From contig CM082595.2 in the NCBI GenBank assembly GCA_040954595.2, positions 5,792,137 through 5,856,136 of the forward strand: DNA of 64,000 nt. Direction: 5' to 3'. The position numbers were made by a program, and so were the translations under genes. Source of the DNA: Balanoglossus misakiensis. Taxonomy: Eukaryota > Animalia > Hemichordata. The notes under the pieces were generated by a model. That model was not told where the DNA came from. It was given only the letters and a program-made list of their open reading frames with translations, and did no database searches. Shown here one piece after another: positions 9,942 through 39,118 of this stretch. The number at the start of each line of letters is the position of its first letter. The stretch's first letter is position 1.

Positions 9942-9942
<1 letters not shown>

Positions 9943-9972
<30 letters not shown>

Positions 9973-9984
9973 TGAATGTATGTA

Positions 9985-10039
<55 letters not shown>

Positions 10040-14626: not shown

Positions 14627-16414
14627 AAACAGGGTGACCCCCTGGCAACTAAAAAAGCACGTGTTTTAGTGGAAACAATTAGAAACTGACTAACATTAAA
14701 ATTATTAACACTATTATGCAAATTAACCAAAACTTCATCAGGGAACTGGTCCAATGTTGTAATTCAATGCTGGTGTCGACGTGTAACTTAGCTATCCATC
14801 TGTCAGGCAAACAGTTATTGCAAAATTCTCAGTAGGACGACCGATCAAAGAATTGACTGATCAAATTCTGGAACACTCAATGTTCTAAAATATCCTCGAA
14901 TAAAAAAAAAATATTAATCATATCTTTCCATGTCATTGGTTCCCCGTTGTGAAAATAAAATTATTTGTCTCTTGACTATTGAGATTGAAACTTCGAAATC
15001 CAAACAGGAATATGTCTCCTTGGCAGAAAGCCATGCGAGATCTACGCTCTCTTGAAGTGCAGAGCAAACACAAAGTTTACAAAAACGACATTCATTAAGG
15101 TTTATCTCTGTCGACAACGCTGTACGATAAGCCGTGAATTTACAAAGCATTGCGTGTCCATAGTCAGATTGCATTGGACATATATGAAATGCTGTGTTGT
15201 CTTGGCTCGATAATAGCATTTGATGGGACGTCGTTGTATTGAAACAAAGGGGCTCTTCGCGTGGAATATTTTAGTGAATGAACAGCCCTTCATCTTTATT
15301 GCACGACAGTGAAATAACACAATCCGCAAGCAGACGATGGCGCCCGAATAGATATCCAACGACGAACTCGACGGCAGCAAAAAGTCAAACAGCGATAATG
15401 CAAGGTGCCACCCACCTGTACTGCTGCCGGCCGACGTGGTTGCTAGGTGATGAGACGTTTGCTAAAAGCTACGAGGGCGAATACTTGTATCGTCAGTGTT
15501 AATTCGAATGGTGCACAGGCCATCGAACCCCGAACCCAGCTTCTGTGCGACAACTGAGAGTCTATGCAACTCGGTGCAATCAAATTTATTGGCTTTCTGG
15601 AGCATTATTTCTGGCCCTCCTCGACCGTTCCGTTTGCATGGTTCATCCGTTGTACGAGGAATAAAACGCCCCAGGGTGGAGTTAAATGACTCTTCCTTGT
15701 ATTTGATAGTGCCGCTTGAACGGAAAATGGCAGCCGAATTGTCATTGCAGAATGACATGGGCACGACCATCTAAAATTCAGTGTCATTGTTTGACATGAG
15801 TAGTCTCTTTGATAAACGCGGCAGTTTGTGTGCTTTACGCTTCCTGTTTCGAGGTTTACATCTGCCGAAATTACCGGATGGCGTTCATGAAATCTAAAAT
15901 GTAACCCTCCCCTGTCCGTTTCGAATAAAACGCATAGGCTAATACCCAGTGTCACCACACAAGTTGGCTGTGGATCTGAGATAGGGCGAAAAAGTTTGGC
16001 TCGGCGATAGTCGTTGCCAGACACACGTTAAATGTCAATGACGCCACGCTCGCTTCAGAGAGAGGTCGATTATATTCATATTTAAATAATCTTTTCACTC
16101 GTCTGCAGTAAGATGTCAGAAGCCAGCGAGGACTCGAATGATTGAAACAATCTGAACATGCGCAATACAGTCCACTGGATCGAGTACATAGATTATATAG
16201 TACGCAGCGTTTTGACATGCATGAACACCGATCTCGCTCCAACAGATTTTTCATGTCTGTCTCCCAACAGATAAACCTGTGAGGTGGTCGCTGTGTTTCT
16301 GTGGACCGGGCCCAGCAGAGGGGAGCCAATAGCTGCGCTCGACATAACAGCGAGATTCATGCGGTGACCTCAGTTAAAATCCAAGCAAGACAACCACAAA
16401 CACATGCACACACA

Positions 16415-16664
16415 ATGACAGCGGACTTGAAAGACGTGAATGGTGGGAATAATTCCACGGAGGCGATCAAGTACAGGCCGTCGACATCGGAGGAGAACGG
16501 CGATGCCATTCTATTCAAGGACGACTCAAAACTGGGCCTTCGTCCGCTGATGTGCAAAACCTGGTGGAGAAGACGCACGGCGATTGAAAAATCTCTGGCG
16601 CTGCTGTTCGGTGGTACAGCGTTTCTCTGTATTATTCTTATAATAATACTCGCAGCACAGCAAG
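16415..16664 (+). CDS. M13 gene coding exon 1: cytoplasmic tail and signal-anchor TM (MTADLKD...[34 protein letters not shown])
   Basis: ATG at 16415 with an in-frame TGA upstream at 16280-16282. WWRRRTxxEK precedes a hydrophobic helix, as in M13 proteins. Donor G|GTAAAT is phase 1 and matches exon 2. The exon acceptor is probably ctcccaacag ending at 16270. Confidence 0.88.
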
Positions 16665-19600
16665 GTAAATATCTGTCATTTTTCTCTTTCATATTTAGAT
16701 AACTACGTGTATTTGGAAGGTTATATATGTCGCGAGTCCCGCATTTTCCCGCCAAAACGACAAATTTTCCCGCCACATCACTTCAATGGGCCATGTATGT
16801 TTCCCTCTGTCGTTTGACTGTGCGTGAGTTGATCTAATCATACACTGTCTATGATCTAATTGAGCGGACAGGTATTCTACTACATGTACATAGAATAGCT
16901 CGTGCATTTTTGGATATACATGTACTCGACATGCATTACACAAGTCACATTAATAGCGCACAACGTCGACGACATGTCAGTCGAATGAAGCACAAAATGA
17001 ACGCAAAGTAGTTGCTCTAAAACGTCCACCGTTATAAAACACGAGAGGTTTAGGCCTACTTTACGCCCGTCGCGGCTTTACATTTATGTCACCAATGAAT
17101 TACATAAAGTATTCTTTCAGTAGTAGGCCTATTAAAGCCCCAATAGCTGCCACTTTTACCATATTTTAATCAATAAACTTCAATCTTCTCAGTCGACAAA
17201 TGACATGTTTTATATAAATACCCATCTGCGCATACCAAGATGGCTGTGTACTCTTCCAATGGGCAGTTGAATAAACGGGTGCGACATCCGTTTATTATTT
17301 ACCCTTTTAGATTTAAATGTACACTCAAAGTCAGAGGTTGATAATATGTTTTGTATACCCATCCCTTAGCCCATTTAATCGATTATTCTAAGTTCGAAAG
17401 TAAAATTATGAAAATAATTTAAAAATTGTTAGCTATTTCGGCTTTAAATCTAGTGACGTTTCTCTTTTGGCCTTTTCGTAGAATAAAGCTTAAGCAGATA
17501 TCATTAGTAATCACGTGTTCCATATGGACATTATTTAGAAAGGCTTATCGATATCCGGAATAATGTTGCGATTGATAAATCGGTACCATTTACGATCAGT
17601 GTTATCAGACAAAACTCGTTCTAAGGGAAGAACCTTTCAACATTAAAGGGAGGGGATCGTGAACGAAACCGGTTCATAGCTGACATTTTAATCTCAATAT
17701 GATTACGCCATTTTATTTTTCGAGCCTCTCTCTCTTTTTTTAAAGCAACTGTTTTTCAATATGATTACGCCATTTTATTTTTCGAGCCTCTCTCTTTTTT
17801 TAAAGCAACTGTTTATTCATCTTTTTGGCGAAAATAACTTTGCACTCTCTGGTTCAAGGATACGTTGTTTGCCAAACTATAGCACGCAGTGTTTTAAAAT
17901 TTCAGACAATTCGCGAAACGCCATCTTAGTAAAAAGGAACACAGACGGTGAAAATTATCAAACCTAGAACCATTCATGGTCAACAAAGCCCCCCAACAAA
18001 ATGATGCACACCTTTTCACTACGACTTTCTATGGGATCACCTTTGAACCAGAATTCGCATTTATTCGGTCACGATTTCTGCAGTAAAACAGAAAATGAAA
18101 CATGAAAAAAATAAGCTCAGTTCAGCATACATACAGTCAGCCATCCTACGTCTTCGATTTACATACAACTTACCTTATGGTCAATTAGCCCTTCTGTCAA
18201 CTGTAAAGCTTGCTATCTTAAATCAAGCGAGTTAAAAGGCTCGCCACGATTTCAGTTGCAGGCTATTCTTTCTCCGGGTCACGGGGTCATATTTGACATT
18301 CGTCGCTGTTTACACCGTGTCAAACGGCGACTGAAAGGCAAAATCGGTTCACAAACTTTGAAGTCGGTTTTCTTTCAAGACATAATAAGGGCCAGCTTCA
18401 TTGTATCTAAGTTACATGAAGGGGGCAAAATCTCAGCAAATGAGTTGTGGCTTAATCATCGCCAGTCGGTGTCGAGTTAGCATTAATCCCATAGCCGCGC
18501 CTCTATATACTTGCGGCGGGGAATTCCATCAGAAACTTACTTAACACTGCTTTGACATAATAAGATATTATGATAGTTTACATTTCACTGTTCTATATTG
18601 AATTTTTTTGTAAAAACTGCAATTCTAATATTTTACTGAGAAACAAGCAATTTCAATACATTTTCCAGAAATGGACTTATGTTAAGGAGATTTGACTGGA
18701 TACTCTAATTTAATGTGGACTTATTTGATAAATATGAGAAGAAGGTATTTATTATGTTTTCAACAATGTCAGAAATTCAGGTTTCCCAGTGGAGACAAAA
18801 CATGGTTTGACGGCCATCTTGATTTCAAAAATGATATCTCTTTAGAGTTCAGATATTGGCAATTTTGTTATTTGCTTATCATTTTCCTTTCGTATCCCAA
18901 TCTATTATCTCGTTTGAATATGTAGCATGAAAAGAGGCAAATTAGGGCTTTTTAGGGATTCTCAGATGTTGCTTGAATCTACAGAATGCTATCATCAACA
19001 GTGGATGCGCTGTCAATGCAATATGCAACAATTCTCCAACAAAATTGCTCTATGCCACAGAAAACATAACTTACAGTACATCCCATGCAAAGACGCCTTT
19101 CGAACGCTGTCATAGCGTGCCATGTAATAACGACGACAGACAAGAGACCGCGATCTACTCGGTGTTGACGACCGCAGAAATGCAAATTATTCACCGCAAC
19201 TACTCCGAATAGTATCAACTTGTCATTGATTCGCATAGGCATCTTTCGACAGCTGCGTGTCGGCACCGCCAGCTACGCCTAAACTGATACATGAATTACA
19301 ACGACCAGTTGAAAAACATCTGGCGATCTTCCTGATTAGTATAGGTTGCACCTGTTGTATTTTTCACTAAAAGATCGCCGTCTCCCGCCAACAATTGACG
19401 TGCACACGGAATTCTACTGCACACAGTTGTCAAGGGCACTTGAAAGTCATGCATTTTTCTCATTTTTATTCCGAGCTTGCTTTGTCCTTTACTACTTGAG
19501 AATATTGTACACACAAAATGAGGATGGCGGTGATGGTGTCGATGATGATGATGAATACTAAAGTATGAACAAGTGATAAATAGGATTATTCATTATTTTC

Positions 19601-21719
19601 TATTTAAGTATTGTACATGTACTAGTCAGCAATTACAGGTCGTTCGTCTGTCTTTTTGAAGGACAGATGTATATCTCGTGCACACGGCGAAGAAAATGTG
19701 CACTTCCTGAAGGCATCCGCTGTCGTGCGGATGTGACTTGCGGCGGTCACGTAGCCAGTCTTAACTCCAAAACTGTTAACCTCTTTTTTTAAATTAGCTA
19801 TAGCTTTTATAATATGCAAATAGATGGTATACTGTCTCTTATGCAAATATAAGGATAGTTACCATGATCCAGGCAATCACGGCTTTTCACTTGGGTGGCT
19901 ATGCAAATAACGTCTGCCACCACATGACCATACGAGGATTCAGGAACGCCGGTTAATTATGCGTGTATGTAAATTAGAGGTGGTCGTATCCCTTTAATAT
20001 AATCAAACGCTCCACAACGATGACGAAGCGTGTGCACATGTTAAAGGTATGGAATGTGTTTACAGGGCCACAGGCCTAAGAAAATAACTGTAATCCTGGC
20101 CAGTAAAGATGTCGCATCGTGAAATTCTGGCCAAATCGTGCCGTATCCTCGAGAGATAACTCTCGCCCTGATAATCAAGAATTTCTAGCAAAAAGACCCA
20201 CAGCCGCAATCGGCCTTCGTGTCCGAATCTCCCGCAGTTACATCTTTGCTGCATTAGTCGTCCGCAAAAAATCGCTCAGTCTGAATCAACATCCATTTAG
20301 ATTACGCCTTTTAGCAATAAAGAGCTGCGTGTGATATCGCTGGGTTGTAAATCTGAGCCACTTCTAAACGCCAAGAATTGAGCCTAGTTAAAACCCAATA
20401 ACTGCCACTTTTAGCATCTTTTTAATGGATAACATATTTCAATCTTGTCTTATCCTAAGTCGACAGATGACAACATTTTGAAATTGTAGAAATTCTAATA
20501 GCCATAGGCAACTGAATAAACGGATGTTGCACTCATTTATTATTTAACTAGTTTATATGTAAATTAACTACATTCAGATGTTGATAGGCCTAATACATTT
20601 TTGCATACCTATCAGTAAACTCATTCAAGGAAACCGTTCAGGTTTGACAGTAAGCTCATGAAAACAATGCAAAAATGCCCATTTTTGCCTGGTTTCACGA
20701 AGTATGGTGGTAATGTTTCTGTCAAACAATGCAAACAATGCAAAAATGTCATTTTGCCTGCTTCCACAAAGTATGGTGGTAATGCTTCTGTCAAAAGCCA
20801 TTTTTTTCCTGCGATTGTAGTTTGCTGGAATTTAACACTTCGGCCGTGCTCACCTACCGGATATTTGCCATCCTGAAAAGAGGCACGTTTAGAACATATG
20901 GCTATGTTTGCAGCAGCGCAGGGTGTCCGAAATATCTGCAGGGTATTGAATAAAACTCTTCAGAGAGCGGCTGCCCTGGACTCGAATCACCGAGAGGCTG
21001 TCCAAACTTAATCATCCAGTGGCTTGTGTGTTTACTTAGTGCCTGGTGAAGCAGAAACCATGGCCGCCGGCGATGCCGGTTTGAAAACAACACTTGTCGC
21101 ACAAAGTTGGGCAAACAAGATTAAAACTGGCCCGAAGCGGATGGATAAAATCGTGTCTAATCTCCGTTATCCCCTCCCAAGAAAAAACGCGTGGTCTAAA
21201 AGAATCGTTTCGACCACACTCGATACTCTCGCTCCCTACGTGTAGTCAACATATACTTAGTTCACACTGGGTAGAACTGGAACGTTTCAGAGACACTATG
21301 GCATCTGTAAACACAGACGTCAAATCCTTTGGGTCAATTTGTGTCCACACACACATAGACACCGCGTATTTCAAAAGACCGTTCTTGGTACGCACCACCG
21401 CTCCAGATCTTGCAGCAGCAACATTTTCCCAGGGTGTTAATTGAATTAAGCGGAAACGCTTCGCTAAACAATCCATCCACGAATGAACACCAATTGCACG
21501 TTTTCAACTGCAGCAAGAATTGGCCCCAGGCGTCTGTATGGACGCCACTCTTACAAATTAAAAATGTATACATTTAATCTAAGACATTTCCGGCACGTTT
21601 CCACAAAGTCACCTGTAGATTCACATATAGAAGAGAGGGGTGGGGAGTGGGGTGGGGCAGAGAAAGAGAAGAGGGAGGGAGGGAGAAAGGGTTCATAGCA
21701 CATCCGACCAGACTCGTAG

Positions 21720-21789
<70 letters not shown>

Positions 21790-24700
21790 CAGGAAGACAG
21801 ACAGACATAGAGTCAGACAGACAGACAGACAGACGAAATTTCTGATACGGAAGAATAGCTCTATGTGCTAATAAACGGCAAGATGGATGTGCAGAAACGT
21901 TCAGAAACGTAATCTACCGAGTCTTTGTCGGATTAGATTGGACATTTCGATACATTAGCTTATTCAATTAGCGACCAGCCACTGCGCCGACAGATTACGC
22001 AAGTGAACATGTCATTTTCGTTTGGACTAACATATGAATAAATTTATCCTATAGCGTGACATGTTGACGGCAATAAATTCACACCAAAGTGAATTTCGCT
22101 CGACTTGATGTGCAGTGATGCGGTGGTAGCAACAGAGAAATGTTGGCCACCGGGACGATGATGGGAATGGGGGGGAATAGCTGCAATTGACTTTCATTCT
22201 ACCCCTGAACTGTGTAGGAGCATTGCAGGATTTTGTTTCAGACTGAGAGGAAAAACTTTCTACTGTGGTCTTGTTGTTTTTATATATAGTGCCAATATCA
22301 GGACAGTCACCCCCTGGACATTTCCAACCACTATAGTGAGGGCTAGTGTTAGGGATAGATGGGATAAGTGACCGGTGGGTATAGGTGTCCAGGGGGTAAC
22401 TGCCCTAGAATCACAAACCGTCAAATGTTTCACATACCCTCACAGGCACCTCGCTGTCTTAGCACATATGCGCACATCCATCTTAAAGAAGTCTAGACTT
22501 TTAAAAAGTCACTTAAAATGTAAAAAGGATCTCGTCAATATTTCTGAATCTCATTCGAGTGGAAATCCCATTAGGGCAAAATTACCCGCACCCGGTGCTC
22601 GTAGATGAGAAATTAACGTCACACGGAGAAATAAAAAAAGAATATTCCATTGGCAGATGTCATTTGTAGTCCACTGAATTGAAAAACGCAATGATCCTTG
22701 CCCATCAATGTGCGTCTATCAAATCAGACACGAAAATAATATGGTCCGATCGTTAGGCTGTATGTTTTCCCATTCCCCATGGATCATCGCATAGGCAAAG
22801 TATAGACACACTTCTTTCAACGTTAACTCTTGCTTATTCCTGCTCTCGAGTTCCTCCAACTTTGTATTTATAACCTAGGGGGCCCTTCGGAAGTGCACTG
22901 AGATTAATCGCGCCACCGACAATGGCCAAGCAACTTTAATTAATAATGTAGCGTGAATCTGTTTCAGAACACGATTTCCCCAATGAAAGGACTGCGAATT
23001 ACCATAAACCATACTTCAAAATTTCGGAAATGAAACCACCACGCTGCAACAGCTGACTTATCATGTGAGCTTTATCTTTCATTTCCAGCCAGGAGTCTGT
23101 GAAAGATAGAGTTTAATAGACCGTGTCTATGGTTTGTGTGGCGTATCTGCACACCTGGTCTTCTCTGTACAAGCATATTGTGCGAGTTGCTGAAATTAAA
23201 CTGAACAGAACGAGCCACTCGTGTCCATAACATCTGGCATTGTCGTCAGGTTTTGATGAAAAAGGTGTTTTGCTGATTTACAGCCCACACTGGTTGTTTA
23301 TTCTTCAGTCAGTATGGAACAGGTCCCATATACACCAGTACAGTACAGTACAACCACCCCTGTCTGTACTGTAAAGTCGTAAAGGTTAAAGAAAGTGTGG
23401 GAACGGAGCATTGATTAGTTGTTGTTTATAATAGGCTACAGTGAATCATTGTTACTGTCTTTTAAGCAGGGGTAGTAAGGTCATACCTTGGGAGCACAAT
23501 GTCGCCATTTCTTCGGTGGTTGTTTTTTTATTATGTTGGCCCTGTTTGGGCCGGCCGGACCACATTGTCTAGTGTCTATTACCACACAAAGAAACACTTC
23601 AGACTGCAGTTACTCGTGAATACGACGTCACTCGTAGTCAAGAAGTGTCGTTGAAATAAAAATTCATTACATGACTGTGATTGCTTTGTGTTTTGAAGCC
23701 TGTAATAAAACCGTCCCATTGTAAACATCTTGAGATTGAAGACACAGAACACCGGAATCATAATCCCCATCATTATAAGTATACTCTTGTCCTTGCTGGA
23801 CTAATTCAAAATTACACGTAAAACCAACAATGTGAACTCTGGACGAGTATCAGGGTCACGACTCCCTATCGAGTAGATGGGATTTGCAAATAGGATTTTC
23901 AGGACTTATGCTATTGAAGTTCGATCAAATATCTAAATATGATTACACTCAGACTTTGCCATAATATAGCGAAAAGCCTTTCATCACGCGAATGTGGCAG
24001 TTCTTAGAGCAAGCTGATTGCCAAAGGATTTAGGGCGATGTAAAGGCTTTATGTATCATGTTCAGCTCCAAAGGCCTAAATTGACTGCTTCTTCCATTGA
24101 GGAGTGACTGGCATTATATTATGCACTACAGAAATGCCAACTTTAATGAGTATATGTATGTTTTTTGGTCATGCACGTTAAATGCGGGACGTGCACATTG
24201 CACGCATCATGAAATTGCACCCGTGTGCGATCAAGCATGCTCTAATCAACCTGTGTGAGTGCAACCTTTAGGGACGGAGGTTTTCGTGTCAAGGTATGCC
24301 GTAGTTCAGGGTTCAAGCCTATTGTCTTCGGTGGCGGGAAAATTCCCCTGGGAATCCATTTATGCAGAAATCAATGTGGAATAATTAAATGCGCGCGCAT
24401 CCTTGACCGCAAGTAAACGTTTTGTGGTGGACATAAACTGAAGACGCTAGTTTGCTACAGCCAGTTTCTTGAGGAAGAAAATAGGGTTTGGAGAAGTGGG
24501 CAGTGTCTTGTGGACAGTGTGGTGGAATTTGTACCATCTACATGTGTACTTATATTATATAAGTCGCACATACACAAAAGCGTGTTGTCTGTTCAACAAG
24601 ACCAGCTTATTTCTGCAATTATAAAATGTTCTATGTAAAACTTGACAAATTCAGTTCGGATGCTATTCTGAGTGAACTAACAGGTCAGATGGGGTTTACG

Positions 24701-27700
24701 ATGTGTACCGTCCTTGACAATAGTTTACCTTTACTCTCACCAATGGACGTGAGAATTTGCGCTGAATTCCAACTTTATTAGCTTGAAATGCTCAAAGTCT
24801 GGTCCTAGAGGAGATCTTTCGAACTGAGGTCCTGGGTTCGATTCTTAGAACGACCCTCAGAATTGTGTCACTCTGAGAGTTGATACGATCTTCTTATGAC
24901 GTTTCACTGTTCCGTGCAGAATGGTGAAATTCCAGCGGTGTTCTCCTCACTATTGTCAATGCCTCGCGGCCGTGTCTCGTCTTGTGATTCCATCATACTG
25001 ATAAAGAACTATCCCGACGCCGTAACGATTGGTGAGGAGGAATGTCAAACAGTTCGAAATTTTAGTGTGAAATTCTTGTTCATTTGGTGCCCTGAACACA
25101 AGAAGCTTTCTAACGGTTTATGCCTCTCGCGAGTTTAACAGATGGCAAGAAAATCCCTATGATGTTTCGTCAACAGCAGTGTTAACCACAGCGTTGCTTG
25201 TGGGATAATACTTTACCTACTGGAGCGTACACTGGGGTTATTATTTTGTGCTGAGGGCCGCGAGACACATCTATAGGCATTTAGCATACATTTTACTTAA
25301 CCAAAATAGCCGCTTCCATAAGAGGACAAGACACGATTTCGTTTGCACAATCGCAATTAGTAAATTACAATGTCACCACCCTGTTGCAACCGCAATTAGT
25401 AAATTTCAATGTCACCACCCTGTTGCGAGTTCTCTACATAAACAATTTGGAGCTAATCTGCACATTACTTTAGAATTAGAAATTTGGACTGGGTACATGT
25501 CTATAATCGGCTATTACAAATGCACTAGATATTGCCAAATGTTAGAATCATGCCCAAGCCGGTTTTGCACAGTGGAATCTTTTACTACTGAGGTTGTTTT
25601 TTTTACTTGACATATGGCATACGTTATAAGTGATGGTAGCAAGGTTGGCAGGTGCATTAGTTGAGCCAACTAATGTATGCCCGACAGTGTCACGTCTGTG
25701 ATTTGGTGGATAACCTATGTATTAATTGGACTGACTCCTTCCCATGTGTGTAATCCAAACCTTCCATTTGCGTTTGTACAGATAACAGACTACGAGTCTC
25801 CCCCAGCTATGTTATCAAAGTACAACCGCCGAGAAACTGCTTGACATTTTGGTTTGGTGTCCGTTGAGAGCGTTATCTTCGCTGTACTTTTCTTTATATT
25901 CCCCTATTTTATCTTATTAGTCTGTACACGTGATTTTATCACAATGACGCTGGTGGTGTACATGAGTGTATTTCCTTCCGGTAATCACGAACAGAAGTGA
26001 TATTCTCAGTATTTTAAGAATAGGCAATACTAGTCCTTTATTTGTTTTCAACTCAGTACAATAGCATTTCTAGGAAAATCGTATTATATATTTAAGTTAA
26101 AACACAGGAAATCACCCATAGCAATTTTCAATATATACCGGAAGTGCGGTGTTTGAACATGTCGCTCCTGAAATACCACGCTCTGTTATGTTACGTTTCT
26201 CAACATGTCAGTGAAATATAAAAGACACGAAAAGTACTGTAGTGCACAGCCAAGGAATTCATATTTTAACCATCGTTTGTGGACGCGTACACAGCATGGT
26301 GTATAATAGCTATAGCTCAAATATGGCACTTCCGGTTTCGTAGTTGCTGTATTTTCAATGATTGTTTAGAACTTCCTGGTAAATCTAAAACACGTGCTGT
26401 ATACATTGACAAAAGCAATTGCCGAGGGTCGCGGTGTCTCCAGGCAGCCGTTGTGAGGGAAGTGACCGAGAAACACCGACTTGCAGACTACGTTGCGTCG
26501 TAATGATCAGTCTTCAACATGCCCCATCATAGATCGGCTTGTCGCGATGATCTTCTAAGGCGTACCCTTGGGTAGTGCATGGCGCCTTTTACGGTTTACA
26601 AATCCATACATTCCCAAATGACACTTAAAGCGATTTACTGTAACGAGTATTCTTTTGGATTGCTTGGAGACAGCTATAGATGGGTGAGGTTCGTTGTGAG
26701 TTGTTAGTTACCTCGTAGTTCTAAACAATCATTGAAATACACCAACTGCGAACCATGTCCACTGTATACCGGAAATACGTATTTGACCCATGACGTATTA
26801 CACCATGACGTGTCCGTGTCTCAGACACATTATTCAGGCACATTGAAAATATATCTGTAAAACGTAGCCATATCTTAATCGCTATTTGATTGAATTCATA
26901 ACGGTTAATAGGTGTCATTTATCCAACAAATCGCTTCTTATGGCGTCGTTAACGGAAAGCAAATCTTTGGGCGTGTCTTTTCGTGGGTCCGCACAACAGT
27001 AAATTCGTCAAAAGTTCTTTCTTCCGTGACGGTTTTGTGATACATCGGCTGCGTGCCTCGCTGCACGATAGCATATCATCATCACAAGCAACCATATCCC
27101 CTCAGCCTAAAATTCTTTGACATGAAAATTATCAGCTAGTATTGACCTCAAGCGTGTTAACACCGCCAGCTACCATTAACTAGTGGATGGGGCCACGCTT
27201 CTCATCCCTCGATAAAAAGTAGCAGGCCAGACTATCTGAATAATTTGTGATAGTAACAAGTATAAATGTCCCAAAAACTGAGAAGGCTTGTCAAGGCAGT
27301 TTCAAAGCACCAAATGACACATACGGTACTTATGCCTTTACCAACTAAGCAGCAACAACTACAAGCTTCTTGTAAAGGCGATGTGACTGTCATATTCAGC
27401 TGATTATTGTACGTGTAAATTGGTTTCTCAGACACAAGAGTAAAGTTATTAGGAGTAGGTCAATCGAGAAGTAAAGGCACTCACACGGATATGATCTGAA
27501 AGGGTACATCTATCAAATTGACAGGGCAGAAGTAAAAAGCTAAACGCATTTCAAAATGTTTATTGTTGTGTACAAAGTGGCGCAGCGGAGACGGGTTTTC
27601 GAAGAACGGAAGTGATGTCGTACCATGAAGGACTAATTCCGCTGTCTGCGTTTTAATCCAAAGTCAATCCCGCAATATATATTCACCTGTAGTCTACAAT

Positions 27701-30700
27701 TGAATGTGCGGAAATTGACGGCACCCCAGACTCAATGCCGTACGATTTCGTTGCCAGAGTCATTTTGTGGGCGCCCAGTCAGAACGGAAGACGACGACAC
27801 GGGATTTGTTTGCTGTTGAAATATCCGCCGGACGCGTCGATCGTATCAGCGTTCCCTAGTCAACATAATTGCTGTTGCATCGGAACGGAGAATAACATGT
27901 CCCTCGACCTAGATTACTAAGGAAATGGAAATGGCTTCATGTAAATGTAGCAATACATTCTTTAAGGATAGATGCTTTAGATAAAGTCATCTGAAGAGCT
28001 GAGAGCAGAATGCAGATGCCTGTTCAAGGGGGGGGGGGGAGAATTAGGGCACTCAATAATTTACCCCTCTTTGACAGTCATAGTTCCAGATGTACATACG
28101 TCCATATATTTTGTTTTCTTGATTTAAGACTTTCATATTTGTGCAATTAAGGTTCTTTGCTCATGTACAGCAAATACCAGCTGTTCTAATCTGTTTAAAA
28201 CGATGTTATACACATCCGATTGATATTTTATTGGCGACTTTCAATTTGGATTTATATATGGTGCCTAAAAGTACAGTGCTAGACCAGCAAAAACACACAG
28301 TAATCAATTCGTTAGCAATTGAACAACATATCAAGTAATGGCTACCTAACCTCATACTGCATCTCGAATGAGGTTCGATTCTGATTGTCACGATATGCAC
28401 ATTTTGAAGTGCTGTCCACCAAAGGCGTTTGACCAGATGCTGTTTATTCAGCACATTAAAATCTCCACACGAGCTCTCTATACGATAACCTGCGTACAAT
28501 GGGGCAGAGGTGAAAATCTCAAATATTAATAACACCCCGTCTCTTCCGAGTACATGTAGTTTGTTTTATTCCCCGATCAGTCAGCTGTCATTGCGAGATA
28601 TAAATTGAGATCTACTCCATCAGGGATGTAGACTGGAGCACTCGCATTGATCAATAGTGATTGAAATATTATATAGTCTGTAATTAAGTTCTCCGAAAAG
28701 ACGCACCTGCCAAGGATAACAAAAGTGACAGATAAATCCCGCCTGATGTAATCAATGCAATCTTAATTGCCATGTGTGTCTGTTGGCGTCTGTTCTGTTG
28801 ACTCAAAACACCCTGCTGTATCTTGTCAGGGTTTTCGTTCTAATCCCATACATAGTAGATGGCTCAGACAAATGTCTATCATTGAATGCGCGTGGTACAG
28901 CTAGCCTGGATTGCTTCGAGGACAGGCTGCCGGGGACGAAACTGTGCTCAGCGAGTACTGTTGAGGTGGTTATTTTATTCCAGGTACCCCACTGCATTGT
29001 AATCATTGTCATGCGGAATACATAAAAAAATCTCTCGCAGTGATGCACTTGCAAGTACTTGTGTGTGTGTGTGATACTGACTCACGGCGCGTCGTTATAA
29101 CTCGTATTGCGATTGGTGCTACGTTACTCTCCTCGCAGACCAAGACAGCGTGTTGATCTAACCCGTTGTATGACTGCATGGCTAATGGTTACAGCTTCTT
29201 GGAGTAATTTGGCCGAGCTTTCAAATAGGCGAAACATATCGTCGTCCAAGGCGACTTAATTCGTTTATCCGTTGCCGCACGCTCTTCGAAACGCTGCAGA
29301 CAATTTCAGACAACGTCTAGCTGAGATTGTCATGTGAACATTTTTTACACGGTCAACATTTGCAGAGCGAAAATGCTTTGCTAATGTTCTTTATAGGACT
29401 TGGATCCTCCATGTTAATGACCCAAATAAACTGGTTTGCACAATTGTCATACTAGACCCCGACATTCATGATCCACTTCAGATTTATTTGCCAACCTTTA
29501 CAGTTTGTCGAAGTTTTCGAGACTCCTATCATAAAAATGCTACTATCGTCCTAAATGCTGTGTTTATGTATTAAGGGTTATTTGCGCGTCCACACTATGT
29601 CAAGAACTATACTCAAAGGAGAATCAAAACATATTTGTTTTTAAAGGCCCCTTTAAGCTCTGTTGGCATCTTGCCAATACAAACCATTGTGCATGTTGAT
29701 GTCGTTAGAGAGTTTGTGATTGGATTTCTTCTGGGCAGTTGTTGTTGTACGTGTATGCTGTTCCAGCTCTATCGTGTTATCCATTACAACAAATTTGATT
29801 GAGAAGACCTCTTCGCCCAGAAAACATTGCAGACGCTAAAGGCGTATTTAGCGAGTCTACATTTCTCGCTACCCCTGTAATAAAACAATGGCAATCTGCA
29901 ATGCTCTTTTTGAAGTCGGTATATTGACATGCTAAACAAATGCCAAAGTACTAATACATGTACTGAGCTTGATAACAACAAAAGCTACACACAAGAAAAC
30001 TAATACCTGGGCCCGTTAAAAATTAGGTCACCTTGCCACTAAGGGAAAGGGTAGATGAAGGTGCCATTATTCGCGACATAATAGTTCTTGCAAAGCTGAT
30101 GCATAGCACACGACCCTGGATAAGAAAACGAAAGGGCAATATCCTTGGTGTCTGTTGGCGTCATTCTGAATTTGCTACATTCTGGATTGGACAATGTGTA
30201 ATGTCTACAGATTTTACCTTAATGTTGTTTGTTTGATTGTTTGACAATCATGTCATTAATTATAAAAGACAAATGCATAACCATTACCTCAGAGTTATTT
30301 TATGGTATATGCATAATTTATACACCATGATTACCTTTTATGTCACTGCAGGGTGACCTGTAACCTGTGATTCTCTATGGTTCAGAGGGCAGAACAACAT
30401 ATAAGTCGTAATTTCATAATTTCTTCCTTCAAAATATGTATTTTTCACGTATTATTTTTCACTCACCATGTGTCTTTAATTTCAACAATTTCTTACAGGA
30501 TCAAAACAGAGTCAAACGACAAATGAGAACGTTTGTACGACAAGCGGTTGTGTTCAAACCGGTGAGTCACGTGACTATTACGTCATCCCCTTTTATAATA
30601 TTTTGATAATGATACTGATGTAAAGCATGCAGGCATATTCACGTTGATGAAACGAAATCGCATGGTCACATTTTTTTTCGGAAGAGAAACTTTCAGATCT

Positions 30701-30815
30701 AGAGTTAATCTGATATATCAACGAGAAGCGAACAGCGGATAACCAATAAACTACAAATAATGGACATTGAAAATAGAATGAATACTTGATACAATTACAT
30801 GTATTATTATAATAT

Positions 30816-30858
<43 letters not shown>

Positions 30859-33800
30859 TTTTAAGAGGGAAGTCTGTGTTACAAAATAGATTGTAATTTC
30901 CCTCGAAGCCTTCTAGGCTCACAACTATATTTATTTACATAATAGGTACATACAATTCATAACATGAAGCCAATGCTGTCGGTCGGAATTGTAGTTTAAC
31001 TTTACTTTTGCTTCCACTCAGCGTCGGAGCTGTTAAAGAAAATGGATTTATCCGTCGATCCGTGTGTTGACTTTTACCAGTATGCGTGCGGCAAGTGGGA
31101 AAGGGGTCACTACATACCGGAAGATCAGTCAGTCTACGACATTTTCACTGAAATGAGGGACAAAGTGGATCTCATTGGCAAGCGTAAGTCGCATCTTGTC
31201 TCCATGTGTGTTTAATAATGTCTAGTCCGAACAAAATGGCGTCTATATATTATCTCTTTGTTTATACATATAGGTGGTTGAATCCGACTAGATTGTAAAG
31301 ATTTTATTTTTGGAAAACATTTTTAATGCGGAAACTATCAAACTTATATCTTTATTCTAACTGTTGAAAAATGATTCTAATTCTTAAACGATCTGGTCCA
31401 GATACAGCCTTCCTTATCAACTTACATAACACATGTCATTCAGTAATAATCCATTGGCAGCAAAAGTCATTAGTTGCTTTATACTCCAACTTAACCCAGT
31501 ATATTTATTGTATTTTGTGTTGATTTTGTCGACAGGCCTTCTGGAAGAAGAGAGCCCGCCGAGCGAGCCTGAATTTATCACGAAGGCCAAAACCTTCTAT
31601 CGGTCTTGTCTCGATGAATGTGAGTATATAAATCAAGTGTGGGGACGAAAAATCTTCTGCAATGCTATGAGAAAAAGAAGGACCTGCATTAGGAAAAAAT
31701 AGCTGTAACATTTGCTGAAAAAAATTTGCAGACATTACAAAATCCTGTAACCCCCAGAAGTCAATGACCATTGGATTTTTGAGTGTCATGATTTGTATCA
31801 GCACGCCTGTATTGTTGACATCTAGAAGTACCTAACAATAATAGTTGTGTTTGCGTTTTAGCTCAAATTGAGAAGCATGGGAAAGAGCCGATATTAGCTT
31901 TCATAGCTGATCTTGAAGGTTGGCCTGTTATGGGAACTGGTTGGGACAGAAACACATGGAATTTGGTGAAAGTATTGGGGAAACTGCGCACAGTATACGA
32001 CACGCGGACGGTCATCGACATGTGGATTGCAGCCGACGACAAGAACTCGGACAAGCATATAATTTTTGTGAGTTTTTTTTCTTATACACGAATTTTTGTT
32101 AAAGCATAGTCTGAGTGTGACCTCAACGAATACTGTAACATTTTTGCGAAAGTTCTTTAATAACACTGAGAAAAATGGGCACTTTCTGTTGTATTTATCC
32201 CACACGATAATGTCCCGTTGTATCTTTGAAAACCTTTGTCCTCGATTTTGTTTCATAAATGTATGCTATTTTGTTGGCAGGTGGATCAGCCAAGCCTTGG
32301 AATGCCGAGCAGGGATTATTTCTTGAAAAACACAACAGAAACGGTAAATACGTTCATGGCAAATTTTAACGCTTTCACCAGCACGGTTTGGTTCAAATCA
32401 ATTATTTTCTATGATAAAGTTGGACCTGTAAAGAGGGGACTTGGGTGGAATGGTTAAAGGTCAGCTGCCCTCTACGAAAACTGTACCGTTAAGCAGTGCA
32501 ATGTACGACATTGTGGTTATTCAAATTCGTCCAGCATGCTGCTGTGCCTGCAGCTGTATATTTTGAGCAAAACAGACGTAAACCCATCCTTTTTATCATG
32601 GTTAAAATGTCATATAGGCTGGATTTATAATTCTACTTTTTTATTTCAGTATATGAATGCATATCTTGATTATATGGTCAACATAGCCATGTTACTACGA
32701 ACGGACGACGATGAAGAAGATGTTCGTCGCCAGATGGAGGACGCGCTGGCTTTTGAAACAAAAATGGCCGAAGTAAGATGTGCTCTCTCCCCCCCCCTCT
32801 CTCTCTCTCTCTCTGTGATAATGTACACGAATGGTATGAAGCATATTGATTTCAAAATGGAAAGCAACATTTTCAATTTGTGTGGGTATTTTAGATATAT
32901 TTGGTATGACCACAAGTTCTAAGTTCTTATTAATGTAAAACATTGATAACGATTTGTTTACAGTACAGTGTCCCAAAGGCAGATCGTCGAGATATGGACA
33001 AGCTTTACAACAAGATGACGATACGAGAGTTGCAAGATCAAGTACCACAGGTGAAACTAAGAACAGCTTGCTGATAGAACAGCTTGCTCGACAAAATCAT
33101 CATGGCATATTCAAATACATGGAGCTCTCTTTTATACCCGAAACATACATGTAAACTCTGTTGTGATTCGCTGTTTAAAAGGCGTGGGCGTCGTCCTGCC
33201 TGCTGTTCCCATACGACATAGCAGGTCATAGGTCATACGGCAGTTGCTAGCGAGACAAATTATGCGGAAATTGGGACTGCTACAATGTACATCAGTGAAA
33301 ACATTATTGTTGTTACATTGTATTCCACTGTATGTCATGGCAAACAGTCCATCGTTACTTGTTAGCACATTCCTAGTTTATTTGATACACGTGAAACTTA
33401 TGCCATACAGTTGATGAAAAAGATGTAACAAATAACAAAAGTCGTGTGGCGCCAACTGTTTCCGTCAGTTGTTACATTTTGATCATTTGTGTCTCCCGCT
33501 GTGTGACATATATGTGGTTCTAATATATGATGCTTTCTTTTCCCGAATCTACAGTTTGATTGGATGACTTTTATGCAAATGTCAACGCCTGACACCAAAA
33601 TCGATGAAAACGAATATATTGTTAACTACTCGCCTTCATTTATCACTAACCTGGGTGAATTAATCGCTACAACACCAAAAAGGTAGTATTTTTATTTCTG
33701 TTATATTTTGATATCACTGTTAAGTTTGTATGAAACTTTGAAGCACAGACGTAAGCCGTGTGATGAGAAATGCCCGCCGTGACTGATCGAAAGTAATGGA

Positions 33801-36800
33801 GAAGTTTTCCAGTATTCACCGGGCAACATGCCTATACAGCATATATAAGTTTCCCGCCACCGGATCCGCAATAGGCGTATATAACTTTCGTTTTCTTCTC
33901 AAATTTTCATTTCATTCTACAGGACGATAGCGAACTATGTTATCTGGAATATGATCCAGAAGAACGTGGCTTACCTTAGCGGCGAGTTCCGAACGATTCG
34001 TCAGGAATTCCAGAAGATCAGTTTTGGACAAAAGGCACAGCGTGTTCGATGGCGCCAGTGTGTCCGGGAGACGACGGGGTCGCTTGGCATGGCAGTGGGG
34101 GCGCTGTTCGTGGAGGATAACTTCAACGAAGAGAGCAGGGAAACGGTAGGTTGTGACCACCTGGACTCTCTCACAGCCCCTCTCGTCGTCCATGCAGGCT
34201 TATGGGCTGATTGCATAAGGTTAGCTACACAACACCAAACGGTGCTTCTCCCTTGCCAAACGGTTGAGGGAGCGTAGCGAACCGTGGGCTGTGAGAGAGT
34301 CTAGTGAACACACAAACACCTATAAGCGTCAACACCATGGGCATTCTGTGAATTTTGTTTGTAATATAATGTGGCGTTATTTGTGGGAGTTTGTCTTGTA
34401 TTTACCTATATGTAACTTCAGTGTTCCATTGGCTAAATGGCGTGTTTTGTACAATCTCCATTTCTCAGAAGTACTGGTACTATAGTCACAATTGATTCAA
34501 CGTGAAAATTGAAATTAGAATTTTATTGTGTTTCAGGCACTGGAAATGATAAGTGACATTCGTGAATCTTTTCGAACTATGCTCAGGGAGATAGACTGGA
34601 TGGATGCGAGAACCAAAGTGGTGGCTGAAGAAAAGGTCTGTTGTAACAAATCTTTGAAATAAGTTGTAATACTGTTTCGTGATGTATCTTAAATAGGCAA
34701 CTTGCAGAGAAAATCGCTTTCGCCTAATTATTCTATTTTAATTTAAATTGGTATAAAATGTGTTTGAGAAACATTGTCTTGTAATCTCACATTTGTTTTC
34801 GAATACAGGCTGACGCCATCATCGAACGCATCGGATATCCAGATTATATTCTTGATCCGGAAATTATGAACGAAGAATACAAATCGGTATGTCCATGTAC
34901 ATTTATTGAATCCCTATCCTTATTTAAAAGCTCCATTAGCTGTACCTTTTCGCTATGTTTTCAGTAATTTTGTTTTATGCATGTACTGCAGTTTTTTCGT
35001 TCAAATATCCGAAGCAAGATTTGATGCCTAGCATTTATCTTGCCAACACAACTCATATGTGTATTTAGTCAGCATTGTTATTGTTCACAATGTGTATGTA
35101 CCTGCAAATGTGCATTGCTTATGATAGTTTCTATATCATTTTAGGTACATGTGAATCCGACAAATTTCTTTCAAAACGTCCTTGCTATCTACAAATGGTC
35201 AGCCTATGAGTCACTGTCGCAGCTCAGGAAAACTGTTGATAAAGAAAAGTAAGATTAGATTTTTTTTGATAATGGTGAATAATAAACGCGGTCAGTGTGA
35301 TCAATTGCATAGGATTATCATACTTTTTTATTTTTAATATTTTTTATTATCATACTTTAACCCCTTGAGTGCGCTACAGATGGAGACTTTCTTCAACTCC
35401 GAGAATCATTCTGTTATGAATTGGTTTCCCGTCAAATTAGTTACCATAGGTTTGATCGGGGCTGTGCTTTTTGACCATTTCAGATGGAAGACGACGCCAG
35501 CAACGGTGAATGCTTTCTACAATCCGTCCAGAAATGAAATTGGTGAGTTCGATCAGCCATGTTTTTTTCCACGTGGTCGTAGGTTCCTTCAGCACACTTT
35601 TTTCATTTGTAAAAGTGCGCCCTCTTGCTAAGTATTTACTTTCTCTTGTTTTCCTCAGCATTTCCAGCTGGTATACTGCAGCCGCCATTTTACAGCCAAG
35701 ATCACCCAAAGTGAGTATAGCGCCAACAATTCCACCTTTTGTACACTGTCTTTGATATCATTAATAAAGCTCTTGAAAGATACCAGCAAGGTGAAAATAC
35801 ATGCTAGTAAATTATTACCATATATTGTATATCCCATAGGTCAATGAACTATGGAGGGATTGGAATGGTTATAGGACATGAGATCACTCATGGGTTTGAC
35901 GACAGAGGTAAAATAAAGTTTAAATTTACAGCAATTATTATTTTATTGTTGTTGTTGTTGTTGTTTTGCTGTTGTGTTGTTGTCGTCATCGTCATCATGC
36001 TTATGATTATTGTTGTTGTCACTACCTACATGTTGTGGATTCTGTTGGATTCTCTGGCAGGGCGCCAATATGACAAGAACGGAAATACGCACCAATGGTG
36101 GAGTGAAGAGTCAGTGGAGAATTTCAAGAAGAAGGCGCAATGCATTGTGGACCAGTATTCAAATTACACCGTACCGGAAATCAACATGAATGTGAGTGAA
36201 AACGTCAGGGAATGACGTCAGCTGCCACGTCAGTGACATTAGATGTCGTATTTTCTGACGGCTGCTATCTATAGTAGAGTGTTGCCATGTTTTATCTTAT
36301 TAATCTTTTCATAAAATCTGTTGACTAGATAATATGCCTGTCAACAAAGCCAAGTTTATCTGTAAATCAAAAATATGGGAAATTGCTAATTAAGCCTTGA
36401 TCAGACTTGAATTCGGCAATTGCTTCCTCTTGGTAGCATTTTCATAGTCTTTTCACACATTTGACGTCAATAACACAATTGTGTGTATGCCTGGGATGTT
36501 ATCAGGTAAGAATCTAACTTTCATGATAATAAGCGCTGTAATTTATTTAACAGATAAATGGAGTGCAGACGCAAGGCGAAAACATTGCTGATAATGGCGG
36601 AATGAAGGAGGCATTCATGGTGAGAAACAACATCAATAACCTATCTAATTTGTCCTAATTGATCAGTGAAAATTAATTTATGTTTACTGAGTTATGCTTC
36701 ACTTTGTGTGCTCACTACCAATGAACATATGAACAGCCCTGGAACCCAACAGGCAGAAAAACTTTTAATAGCCTGAATGTTTACAATTATGTCGATGGTT

Positions 36801-39118
36801 ATGTAACTACAGTGTATCAGAAGGTCCTTTGTTTAATCTTCGTTGTGGATACACTATTTCACCAGGCGTACAGGCGATGGGTTGAACGAAATGGCAAAGA
36901 AGAAGATCCTCTTCCAGGAATCAACCTCACCCACAATCAGCTGTTTTTTGTTAACTTCGGACAGGTATTATATTCACATCCCCACGTTGATTTGCATGTG
37001 TTTTTAACTGTTACCTTTATCAAACTAACATGTTTTCGAATTTGGAATCCTTGACTATGTCGTGGACTTTTGGAACCGTTTAATGATTCTATGGTTATGA
37101 CTGTATTCAATAGATGCTAAACACGTGATAGGCGATTACTCTTGTGACGTGTGCAAATTAAACACGCAAGCGCGTAATTGTCTGTGTCCAATATATCTGG
37201 GATACACTTTACCAGTGTTCTAACCACATTAAAACGTATATTTCAAATATTAGTACAAGAATAACGAATGAACGTTCCTCACCAATGTATTGTTGTTTGC
37301 ACCAAACATGTAGCTCTGGTGTGGCCTTGCCACCAACGAACATTTGATAAATTTCTTGTCGTCTGCCTGGCATAGTCCGAGACTTTTCAGGTAATTTGGG
37401 TAATATTCGTGAACTCGAAAACGAACTTCCGCTGGGCATTATCCTCGTTCGACGACAAGTTGTTCTCTGACGAGGATGGGATTGTCATCTCCGAGAAAAC
37501 TCCAGTAATCTCCACCTTTGTTCCAAACATTCAGTAGCATACACAATTTTGACGACAACACATTTCAACTTTTACCAAATTACGAAAGCTGTGGATTGCG
37601 ATTACTGTTTGCTCGGAGACGGACAATCTTACATACTTCTTCATGTAATACTTTTATCACTGACTACATCATATACCTCTATCACTCTGATAATTCCATT
37701 TTTTTACTTTTTCTTCCCATATCGTCTGTCATGTCATTCCTCCACTAACTTACCCATGTGTGTCTTCATTTCCCGCCCACCTGTACCGTGCCGAATGTGC
37801 TTTCCATTCGCCCTCCCATCTCTGCTTCTAACTGTTTACTCGGGCATCTCCACCCCCACCAACTTTGTGTGTGCACGTGTGTGTGTGCGTCACTCCCATA
37901 GGTTCTCTGCATAAAATATCGTCCCGAGGCTTTGAACTTTTTCGTTAGTTCACGATCACACACTGTGTCGCCTTACAGGTACAGTTCTGCGTGACCTTCT
38001 GTTTTTTTCTGCACATGCGTGCATGACCCGGAAGTAGTATGTACCGGTATTACCCACTTCGCACCGTGCAGATCCCTAACCCTACACATTCACCATTCTA
38101 ACACATATAACATCTTGCTAGACTCACATCATGTTTTTAATTCTCACTTGTAATCTTAAGCATGCTGCATTTCAGATAGCCAGTGTAGTAAAATATCTAT
38201 ACACATTATTTTAGTATTAATCAGTTAAAGGTATCGAAATTGTTTTCTGAAGAATATAACATGATATACACGTACATGTATTGTATTGTTGTAGTTTGCA
38301 CGATGACGTCATTACTGCGTTTGAGAAAGCCGAATTGGCTACGTTGTTTCTTTGTTTACGACCTCATTTAAAAAAATCCACATGTAGCAGAAAACATAGA
38401 CCAGAATTTCCCGGGAGATTCTGGCACTTGTGTTGGGAAAATAATATGTGTATAAAATATTAGAAAATACTATCTGCTCGACATGAAAACGTTCGGAAAG
38501 TTAGAATTGTCTGTGGTCGTCTTGTGGATGAAAACTTGTGGAAATGTTACTTGTGTTCGTGATCGTCTTATGTTTTCTTGGTTGATGCAGTAGGCCTACC
38601 TTTCATTTAACAGATCATCTCAACCCTTGCAACGCATGTCCCTGTACATAGGTCCAACTGCACCATAGAATATGTGTAGTACAACGAAATGTGTTAATGT
38701 GAGAGGTCAAAGACATGAAACTAGTATATATGCCAATAGTACATCGGTGTGATTACGAACTTGTCTTTGAAAATGTTTCAAATTGGTGGAGAAGCTTGCA
38801 AATATCATTACATTATTCATTTCACAACTGCCTACATTATCGTTTCCAAGCCTCCATTAAGTAAACTTAGTGTTTCATCTCGGCTGCCACGGTAACGGTT
38901 GTGCGCCTCCTAGCGTTGTACGTGTATACAGGGAAATGAGTGGCAATGGTGAATGATGGTTTGTATATCAAGAGGGCGCCCCATTTTAAGACCACATCCT
39001 ACTTCTTTCTTTGAACAGGGTTTTCGGACCGGTGTCCAACTCTCCGGACTTTGCAAAAGCTTTCAGTTGCAAGAGAAACACGCCAATGAACCCGGAGAAG
39101 AAGTGCGATGTGTGGTAA
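16415..39118 (+). CDS. Neprilysin-like (peptidase M13: neprilysin/ECE/PHEX family) type II membrane zinc metallopeptidase; 21 coding exons, ~773 aa, with alternative penultimate exon 20A/20B
   Basis: Hand-spliced GT-AG exons with consistent phases total 2322 nt. The protein has a cytoplasmic tail and TM helix, then [97 protein letters not shown] and [10 protein letters not shown]. Exact orthology cannot be assigned without a tree. Confidence 0.97.
17132..17447. mobile_element. MITE-like element with TTAA ends in intron 1
   Basis: Inverted termini TTAAAGCCCCAATAGCT / AGCTATTTCGGCTTTAA match at 15/17. A diverged second copy lies at about 20388-20676. Confidence 0.8.
17694..17814. repeat. Tandem duplication, ~62-bp unit x2
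   Basis: TCAATATGATTACGCCATTTTATTTT...AAAGCAACTGTTT at 17694 and 17756. Confidence 0.95.
20388..20676. mobile_element. Diverged second copy of the 17132-17447 MITE family
   Basis: Shared colinear blocks: CTGCCACTTTT, TTCAATCTT, AGTCGACA.ATGACA, TGAATAAACGG, TTTATTATTT, CAGA.GTTGATA, GCATACC/GTATACC. Confidence 0.7.
20662..20795. repeat. Tandem duplication, ~71-bp unit x2
   Basis: AAACAATGCAAAAATG...AGTATGGTGGTAATG.TTCTGTCAAA occurs twice. Confidence 0.9.
21720..21834. repeat. (GATA)n followed by (GACA)n microsatellite
   Basis: Directly visible. Confidence 0.98.
22301..22405. mobile_element. Small inverted-repeat (MITE-like) element
   Basis: GGACAGTCACCCCCTGGACA (22301-22320) and TGTCCAGGGGGTAACTGCCC (22386-22405) are 18/20 complementary, with a degenerate TAGGG-type spacer. 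Confidence 0.7.
25352..25426. repeat. Tandem duplication, 39-bp unit x2
   Basis: CGCAATTAGTAAATT(a/t)CAATGTCACCACCCTGTTGC at 25352 and 25391. Confidence 0.95.
30499..30561 (+). CDS. M13 gene exon 2 ([20 protein letters not shown])
   Basis: ttacag acceptor, gtgagt donor, CxxxxC stalk motif, 63 nt, phase 1-1. Confidence 0.92.
30813..30862. repeat. (ATTT)n microsatellite in intron 2
   Basis: Directly visible. Confidence 0.97.
31022..31183 (+). CDS. M13 gene exon 3 ([26 protein letters not shown]...DLIGK)
   Basis: DPCxDFYxYACG motif, cag/gtaagt, 162 nt, phase 1-1. Confidence 0.96.
31536..31619 (+). CDS. M13 gene exon 4 ([27 protein letters not shown])
   Basis: KAKxFYxSC motif, cag/gtgagt, 84 nt. 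Confidence 0.95.
31862..32067 (+). CDS. M13 gene exon 5 ([11 protein letters not shown]...EGWPVMG...[12 protein letters not shown])
   Basis: GWP and DDKNS motifs, tag/gtgagt, 206 nt, phase 1-0. Confidence 0.95.
32281..32343 (+). CDS. M13 gene exon 6 ([21 protein letters not shown])
   Basis: DQPxLGxPSRDY motif, cag/gtaaat, 63 nt. Confidence 0.95.
32650..32772 (+). CDS. M13 gene exon 7 ([16 protein letters not shown]...AFETKMAE)
   Basis: AYxxYM and FExxxA motifs, ttcag/gtaaga, 123 nt. Confidence 0.94.
32964..33050 (+). CDS. M13 gene exon 8 ([29 protein letters not shown])
   Basis: RRDxxxLYNKMT motif, tacag/gtgaaa, 87 nt. Confidence 0.94.
33555..33682 (+). CDS. M13 gene exon 9 (FDWMTFMQ...[25 protein letters not shown])
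   Basis: FxW and TPKR motifs, cag/gtagta, 128 nt, phase 0-2. Confidence 0.93.
33923..34145 (+). CDS. M13 gene exon 10 (TIANYVIW...[22 protein letters not shown]...SRET)
   Basis: NYxxW, RWRxC and MAVGALFV motifs, cag/gtaggt, 223 nt. Confidence 0.96.
34537..34635 (+). CDS. M13 gene exon 11 ([12 protein letters not shown]...[14 protein letters not shown])
   Basis: WMDxxTKxxAxEK motif, ttcag/gtctgt, 99 nt. Confidence 0.95.
34809..34886 (+). CDS. M13 gene exon 12 ([26 protein letters not shown])
   Basis: IGYPD motif, cag/gtatgt, 78 nt. Confidence 0.95.
35145..35248 (+). CDS. M13 gene exon 13 ([13 protein letters not shown]...QLRKTVDKE)
   Basis: FxNV and LRxxVDK motifs, ttag/gtaaga, 104 nt, phase 0-2. 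Confidence 0.94.
35484..35542 (+). CDS. M13 gene exon 14 ([19 protein letters not shown])
   Basis: VNAFY substrate-binding motif, cag/gtgagt, 59 nt. Confidence 0.96.
35659..35710 (+). CDS. M13 gene exon 15 ([16 protein letters not shown])
   Basis: [10 protein letters not shown] motif, cag/gtgagt, 52 nt. Confidence 0.96.
35840..35907 (+). CDS. M13 gene exon 16 ([22 protein letters not shown]), zinc-binding HExxH
   Basis: HEITH motif, tag/gtaaaa, 68 nt. Confidence 0.98.
36061..36191 (+). CDS. M13 gene exon 17 ([13 protein letters not shown]...[19 protein letters not shown])
   Basis: GRxxDKxGN..WW..C..QY motifs, cag/gtgagt, 131 nt. Confidence 0.96.
36554..36619 (+). CDS. M13 gene exon 18 ([22 protein letters not shown]), third zinc ligand
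   Basis: GENIADNGG motif, cag/gtgaga, 66 nt. Confidence 0.97.
36866..36964 (+). CDS. M13 gene exon 19 ([33 protein letters not shown])
   Basis: LPG..QLFF..F.Q motif, cag/gtatta, 99 nt, ends in phase 0. Confidence 0.96.
37314..37390 (+). CDS. M13 gene alternative exon 20A ([25 protein letters not shown][R])
   Basis: tag acceptor, AG|GTAATT donor, 77 nt, phase 0-2. WCG and HSPxxFR are colinear with human NEP VWCG...HSPGNFR. Confidence 0.9.
37902..37978 (+). CDS. M13 gene alternative exon 20B ([25 protein letters not shown][R])
   Basis: cccatag acceptor, AG|GTACAG donor, same 77-nt length and phase 0-2. Cys3, YRPE, His20 and terminal Arg sit at the same positions as in human NEP. Confidence 0.85.
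39019..39118 (+). CDS. M13 gene terminal exon 21 ([32 protein letters not shown])
   Basis: Pyrimidine tract plus cag. NSxxFAxAFxC..MNP..CxVW terminus, TAA at 39116-39118. Confidence 0.97.

Follow-up and report, generated by a model that had tools for sequence, protein, structure and literature searches.

Two alternative copies of a pocket-bearing exon in a neprilysin-type (M13) peptidase gene of the acorn worm Balanoglossus misakiensis

Neprilysins set neuropeptide lifetimes and are drug targets. Substrate choice in the M13 family has been attributed to the S1' and S2' pockets, but enzymes compared in nature also differ along the rest of their length, which confounds the comparison. A survey of the family places specificity differences in S2' between paralogs, and the string "splic" is absent from it (PMC2259306). 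In a screen of human neprilysin, G714K produced the largest single-mutant change in specificity; basic residues at 705 and 709 likewise shifted specificity, and D709K emerged as a specificity variant (PMC4121237). Gly714 has no side chain and leaves Trp693, which lines S1' (PMC11700742), free to swing towards S2', and ECE-1 carries Ser at this position (PMC4908401). In the crystal structure of the G399V/G714K enzyme (PDB 4CTH), Lys714 enters S2' and restrains Trp693 (PMC4121237). Here we describe a neprilysin-type gene within a 64,000-nucleotide (nt) window of the Balanoglossus misakiensis genome (assembly GCA_040954595.2, contig CM082595.2, positions 5,792,137 to 5,856,136, forward strand; positions below are those of the window). 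Exon 20 of this gene is present in two neighbouring copies, A and B. Splicing of A or B, one at a time, likely yields two enzymes of the same length that are predicted to fold alike and to prefer different peptides.

The copies lie between exon 19 and the last coding exon. Each is 77 nt long, bounded by AG and GT and without a stop codon, just as an earlier note on this DNA had reported, and the gene model bears out the phases given there for exon 19 (0) and the terminal exon (2). The window contains, on its two strands together, 127 stretches of 77 nt that are bounded by AG and GT and free of stops; A and B are the only ones with cysteine at codon 3, histidine at codon 20 and the start of a terminal arginine codon. 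Inclusion of A or B alone yields a complete protein; inclusion of neither shifts the frame of the last exon, and inclusion of both leads to a stop at 37912-37914. The two copies agree at 30 of 77 nt and 8 of 26 residues. We searched the window with a profile of the M13 family, which includes one A-type and one B-type relative and hence is not fully independent of the pair. All 21 matches among 2943 stop-free window fragments fell within the exons of this gene, and A (E 0.0017) and B (E 0.11) matched identical profile positions, 677-702. The same search found no second M13 gene, third exon 20 copy or other duplicated exon in the window. As lone queries, A and B had no match in PDB sequences or Pfam, being too short for such searches. 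With equal length, matching phases and the same protein positions, the adjacent copies have the sequence features expected of a homologous, mutually exclusive exon pair.

The gene itself is an M13 peptidase by every sequence test. Its 21 exons encode 773 residues with either copy of exon 20 in a single open frame, all introns are GT-AG, and exon 1 encodes a type II membrane anchor. Both Peptidase_M13_N (PF05649) and Peptidase_M13 (PF01431) were matched, in the window by exons 10 and 17 and also by the proteins of Ptychodera flava and Glandiceps talaboti. The VNAFY, HEITH and GENIAD motifs are intact at residues 565, 607 and 668.

The closest protein is that of P. flava (83% identity), followed by that of Glandiceps (73%). 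Two RefSeq isoforms make up the P. flava cluster, X1 being A-type and X2 B-type, and all 19 positions at which these differ lie at window residues 716-740, which correspond to exon 20. Window A and P. flava A are identical at 21 of 26 residues, as are window B and P. flava B; the other exons of the gene range from 68 to 100%, and unrelated family segments share a mean of 9.9 ± 2.9 of 26. The exon of Glandiceps, which belongs to the Spengelidae, is A-type and matches window A at 22 of 26 residues. A decaying pseudo-exon would not be expected to hold such identity between species whose proteins differ by 17%, and the amino-acid conservation points to selection on both copies. An old duplication with both copies maintained, as the earlier note had proposed, thus finds support in the P. 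flava isoforms and in the 21 of 26 residues shared across species as against 8 of 26 between copies. We consider it very improbable that A alone is in use, with B a pseudo-exon or the pair a product of faulty assembly or annotation. The B donor is the weakest in the gene and Glandiceps is on record with A only, but B is 21/26 identical to an annotated P. flava isoform of the same length and frame; A and B, alike at 30/77 nt, are far too diverged for alleles, and the flanking exons are single-copy.

A counterpart of B in another species was found in P. flava only. The family-consensus residues Arg698 (55 of 98 segments) and Pro699 (51 of 98) are kept in B and missing from all three A exons, and A keeps Trp693 and Pro713. 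Because each copy retains what the other has lost, B is unlikely to stem from an A-type exon after the split between Ptychoderidae and Spengelidae. By parsimony, the duplication is most simply, and likely, older than this divergence, which dates back more than 370 million years (PMC11175523). A search of 50%-identity representatives, from whose 150 listed proteins 123 segments were parsed, turned up no other segment of either type; close relatives would be hidden within the clusters, so that the result does not speak against a pair in Saccoglossus or others. Shorter relatives gave 2 matches among 6 candidates (annelid, mollusc) and no hemichordate fragment. The P. flava models (P0001 and P0002) are 565 residues long and lack the first ~210 residues, comprising the anchor and first exons; the RefSeq annotation is probably truncated, because these residues are present in the window and in Glandiceps.

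Exon 20 corresponds to neprilysin residues 692-717 in an alignment with PDB neprilysin, which agrees with the ungapped match of both copies proposed in the earlier note. An alignment of 62 sequences has 10 invariant columns; three of these belong to exon 20 and are preserved in A and B alike. The retention of Cys694, His711 and Arg717 by A and B was likewise seen in the alignment of both forms, and for B it holds in both species. In neprilysin, Cys694 forms a disulfide with Cys87, and Asp709 is the partner of His711 in the human enzyme and in ECE-1. A role in stabilising the transition state has been proposed for His711, and the backbone of the inhibitor is bound by Arg717 (PMC7822871, PMC4908401).

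The copies differ around the S1' and S2' pockets, with Trp in A and Leu in B at 693, Trp and Ser at 710, Pro and Val at 713, and Arg or Lys and Ser at 714. Trp710 and Arg or Lys714 are found in A of all three acorn worms, and Leu693, Ser710, Val713 and Ser714 in B of both species. Most of these residues are rare among 98 family segments: Leu693, Trp710 and Arg714 occur in none, Val713 and Lys714 in one each, Ser710 in four and Ser714 in 10. The differences listed in the earlier note hold as assignments, except that Asp709 is missing from A as well, which has Ala there. Arg709 and Thr712, offered as features of B, are present in the window copy, but P. flava B has Gln and Ser in their place, and neither residue is conserved.

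These comparisons outline how one gene would most likely give rise to two membrane peptidases that have their zinc centre in common and differ in the pockets on the primed side. With the zinc site, Cys694, His711 and Arg717 retained, both forms would be expected to cut peptides. Form A, with Trp693, Trp710 and Arg or Lys714, would have narrowed S1'/S2' pockets containing a basic residue, like engineered G714K. Form B, with Leu693, Ser710, Val713 and Ser714, would have a more open pocket. We infer from the analogy with human neprilysin that the two forms differ in peptide specificity, and this inference is strengthened because published mutagenesis at 705, 709 and 714 alters specificity. Alternatively, both forms could be active on similar substrates, with the swap tuning stability, pH optimum, inhibitor sensitivity or lid opening. 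A helix makes up much of exon 20 in AlphaFold models, Arg698 points across the lid interface towards the other domain, and G714K raised the half-maximal inhibitory concentration of phosphoramidon from <10 to 100 nM and that of thiorphan from <10 to 75 nM (PMC4121237). This alternative seems to us improbable, given that positions 693 and 714, both in the pocket, are among the conserved differences and that changes there altered the cleavage preference of human neprilysin.

Several points weigh against two enzymes with different preferences. B could be impaired, since it has replaced Trp693, a near-invariant residue that occurs in 95 of 98 family segments. Neither copy has Asp709, which is replaced by Ala in A, Arg in B and Gln in P. 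flava B, and this residue has been called crucial for catalysis (PMC7822871); it is present in 43 of 101 family segments and does not define the family. With non-amyloid peptides the effects of purified G714K were modest: cleavage changed 7.5-fold for bradykinin and 1.5-fold or less for three others (PMC4121237). In favour of two forms that fold alike, the P. flava isoforms X1 and X2 as modelled by AlphaFold each have a predicted local distance difference test score of 95.3 and the same helices across exon 20, and the X2 model resembles neprilysin with a template modelling (TM) score of 0.96; such likeness is driven by the shared alignment and speaks for fold compatibility only, being silent on activity. 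Glandiceps is represented by a single A-type protein. Alternative RefSeq isoforms are usually backed by transcript evidence; those of P. flava and of the brachiopod discussed below are known here as RefSeq models.

The main rival draws on some of the same observations. It holds that both exons are spliced but that the B form is weak or inactive and serves as an off-switch, peptide binder or decoy. Besides Trp693, B has lost Pro713 (kept in 86 of 98 segments), and its median BLOSUM score against the family (29-33, compared with 44-48 for A) makes it the most aberrant copy; non-catalytic M13 proteins do exist (PMC2259306, PMC7822871). Yet B keeps Cys694, His711, Arg717 and Arg698-Pro-Glu in both species, the zinc ligands are common to both forms, and exon skipping already offers a simpler off-switch. 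We therefore judge an impaired B form unlikely and favour two active enzymes with different peptide preferences.

The splice sites suggest a regulated choice, because each copy has one weak site. The acceptor of A scores -2.0, lower than 18 of 19 constitutive acceptors, and the donor of B scores -0.4, lower than all 19 donors. Transcripts that include both copies would be expected to be removed by nonsense-mediated decay, because their stop lies 64 nt before the last coding junction, beyond the usual 50-55-nt rule. We rejected steric exclusion: the 511-nt intron between the copies is too long, and a branch-like site lies 74 nt before B. Intron RNA pairing between a docking site and selectors, the Dscam-type exclusion mechanism, gained no support once local shuffling was applied. 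The best duplex (-35.5 kcal/mol) was matched by 16 of 100 local shuffles; none of 12 dinucleotide shuffles reached this value, and 1 of 4 region pairs had stood out in the initial test. The last intron contains, close to its end, a patch (38887-38955) that is the top pairing partner of several upstream stretches, including the region before B, and is not significant after local shuffling.

The features of the locus are collected in Table 1. The first intron of the gene (16665-30498) spans 13.8 kb, and the remaining introns are ~1 kb or less. Upstream of the gene, three longer open frames (13213-13800, 13804-14169 and 15608-16027) had no Pfam match, and no systematic hunt for other genes was made in 1-16000 or 39200-64000. 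The repeats listed in these two regions are microsatellites and short two-copy repeats only.

Table 1. Coordinates of the M13 gene and its alternative exon 20 copies in the window.
Feature	Position	Strand	Basis
Whole coding span, M13 gene	16415..39118	+	GT-AG introns, one open frame; 83% to P. flava, 73% to Glandiceps (exon A form)
Exon 16, HEITH zinc-binding motif	35840..35907	+	Gene model and alignment
Exon 18, GENIAD motif (third zinc ligand)	36554..36619	+	Gene model and alignment
Exon 19, constitutive, phase 0 end	36866..36964	+	Sequence and gene model
Exon 20A, 77 nt: Trp693, Cys694, Thr698, Ala709, Trp710, His711, Pro713, Arg714, start of Arg717; weak acceptor	37314..37390	+	Counterparts in P. 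flava X1 and Glandiceps
Intron between copies, 511 nt; branch-point-like CTAAC 74 nt before B	37391..37901	+	Sequence
Exon 20B, 77 nt: Leu693, Cys694, Arg698-Pro-Glu, Arg709, Ser710, His711, Val713, Ser714, start of Arg717; weak donor	37902..37978	+	Counterpart in P. flava X2
TAA reached only on joint A+B inclusion; 64 nt upstream of last coding junction	37912..37914	+	Translation
Last coding exon, phase 2 entry, stop codon at end	39019..39118	+	Sequence and gene model

A similar exchange was found outside hemichordates. Neprilysin RefSeq isoforms X1/X3 and X2 of the brachiopod Lingula anatina differ at 14 positions, window residues 716-738, within the same 26-residue segment. This swap was seen in 1 of 19 other clusters: in Lingula among 9 non-hemichordate clusters, with no equal-length swap in 10 more, five of which are single-member and for which only some members were compared. 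A tree built without the last 60 residues placed the acorn-worm genes beside four proteins labelled as echinoderm (support 97) and put Lingula among spiralians; a tree of the 26 columns, made with a quick method, was mostly unresolved. Compared with one another, the Lingula versions reach a score of 68; compared with the acorn-worm copies, they reach 16-50. The tree grouping and segment scores do not favour a single shared duplication, and the acorn-worm and Lingula duplications are probably separate.

Other irregular M13 models came to light among these relatives. A partial Lingula model on another contig (P0128; the isoforms are P0039, P0129 and P0127) has the X2 form of the segment and stops precisely where the exon does. 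In the chiton Liolophura sinensis, neprilysin-like X2 and X1 (P0089 and P0144) have 37 differing positions at window residues 190-251, which correspond to exon 5 (31862-32067) of the B. misakiensis gene; this is likely a second such mutually exclusive pair among M13 genes, affecting a different exon. Pieris napi neprilysin-4-like X3 (P0313) leaves X1 (P0182) at the start junction of the exon 20 segment and is 40 residues shorter, with no equal-length swap. The unnamed 520-residue predicted protein P0158 has four matches to the M13 C-terminal region and probably consists of fused pieces of tandem genes.

A broader interpretation, which we advance tentatively and with somewhat more doubt than belief, is that exon 20 is a recurrent specificity cassette that arose by independent duplications, one in acorn worms, dating back more than 370 million years, and one in brachiopods. 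One gene would then supply two neuropeptide-degrading enzymes as different as paralogs; one would be a natural equivalent of G714K, and the second would have M13 activity in the absence of Trp693. Such a cassette would place peptide breakdown in the deuterostome nervous system under control at the level of splicing, and the brachiopod parallel suggests that exon 20 is a favoured site for this tuning. The A and B forms, identical save for 18-19 residues of one pocket-bearing segment, offer a clean natural experiment on M13 specificity.

The exon pair is real, conserved and apparently undescribed. Although the isoforms are already present in automated annotation as RefSeq entries without remark, no account of an M13 exon swap appeared in the literature searched, which covers few subscription journals, and the earlier note, too, had known of none. 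No M13 term occurs in 10 supplementary files of PMC5740500 or 6 of PMC7954323, the full exon tables being possibly elsewhere. The general principle is known: in homologous mutually exclusive exons (PMC7954323), as in the gate-domain switch of ACSL6 (PMC1543647), the fold is kept and variable residues lie at or near functional sites.

The gene shares with human neprilysin, ECE-1 and invertebrate neprilysin-1-like proteins the type II anchor, both Pfam domains, the VNAFY, HEITH and GENIAD motifs, His711 and Arg717, and the X2 model has the fold of neprilysin (TM 0.96). It departs from the family in lacking Asp709 in both copies and in that specificity diversity has been described between paralogous genes (PMC2259306), whereas paralog-level divergence is found here within one gene. 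Form A, with its natural Arg or Lys, resembles engineered G399V/G714K in having a basic residue at 714; unlike that laboratory variant (PMC4121237; PDB 4CTH), it adds Trp710, Ala709 and Thr698. The differences between Lingula X1/X3 and X2 are confined to the same 26-residue segment, and the derived copy replaces Pro713-Gly714. In contrast to the acorn-worm pair, one Lingula copy is family-consensus, both have Trp693, and the copies are closer to each other than to either acorn-worm copy. Another parallel is provided by coq-2 exons 6a and 6e, equal-length duplicated exons that remodel the substrate site of an enzyme and occur in several animal phyla, possibly with independent origins (PMC7434440). 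That enzyme is a prenyltransferase with a demonstrated substrate switch and one clearly ancestral copy, whereas the acorn-worm gene encodes a peptidase in which both copies are derived and the functional difference is predicted.

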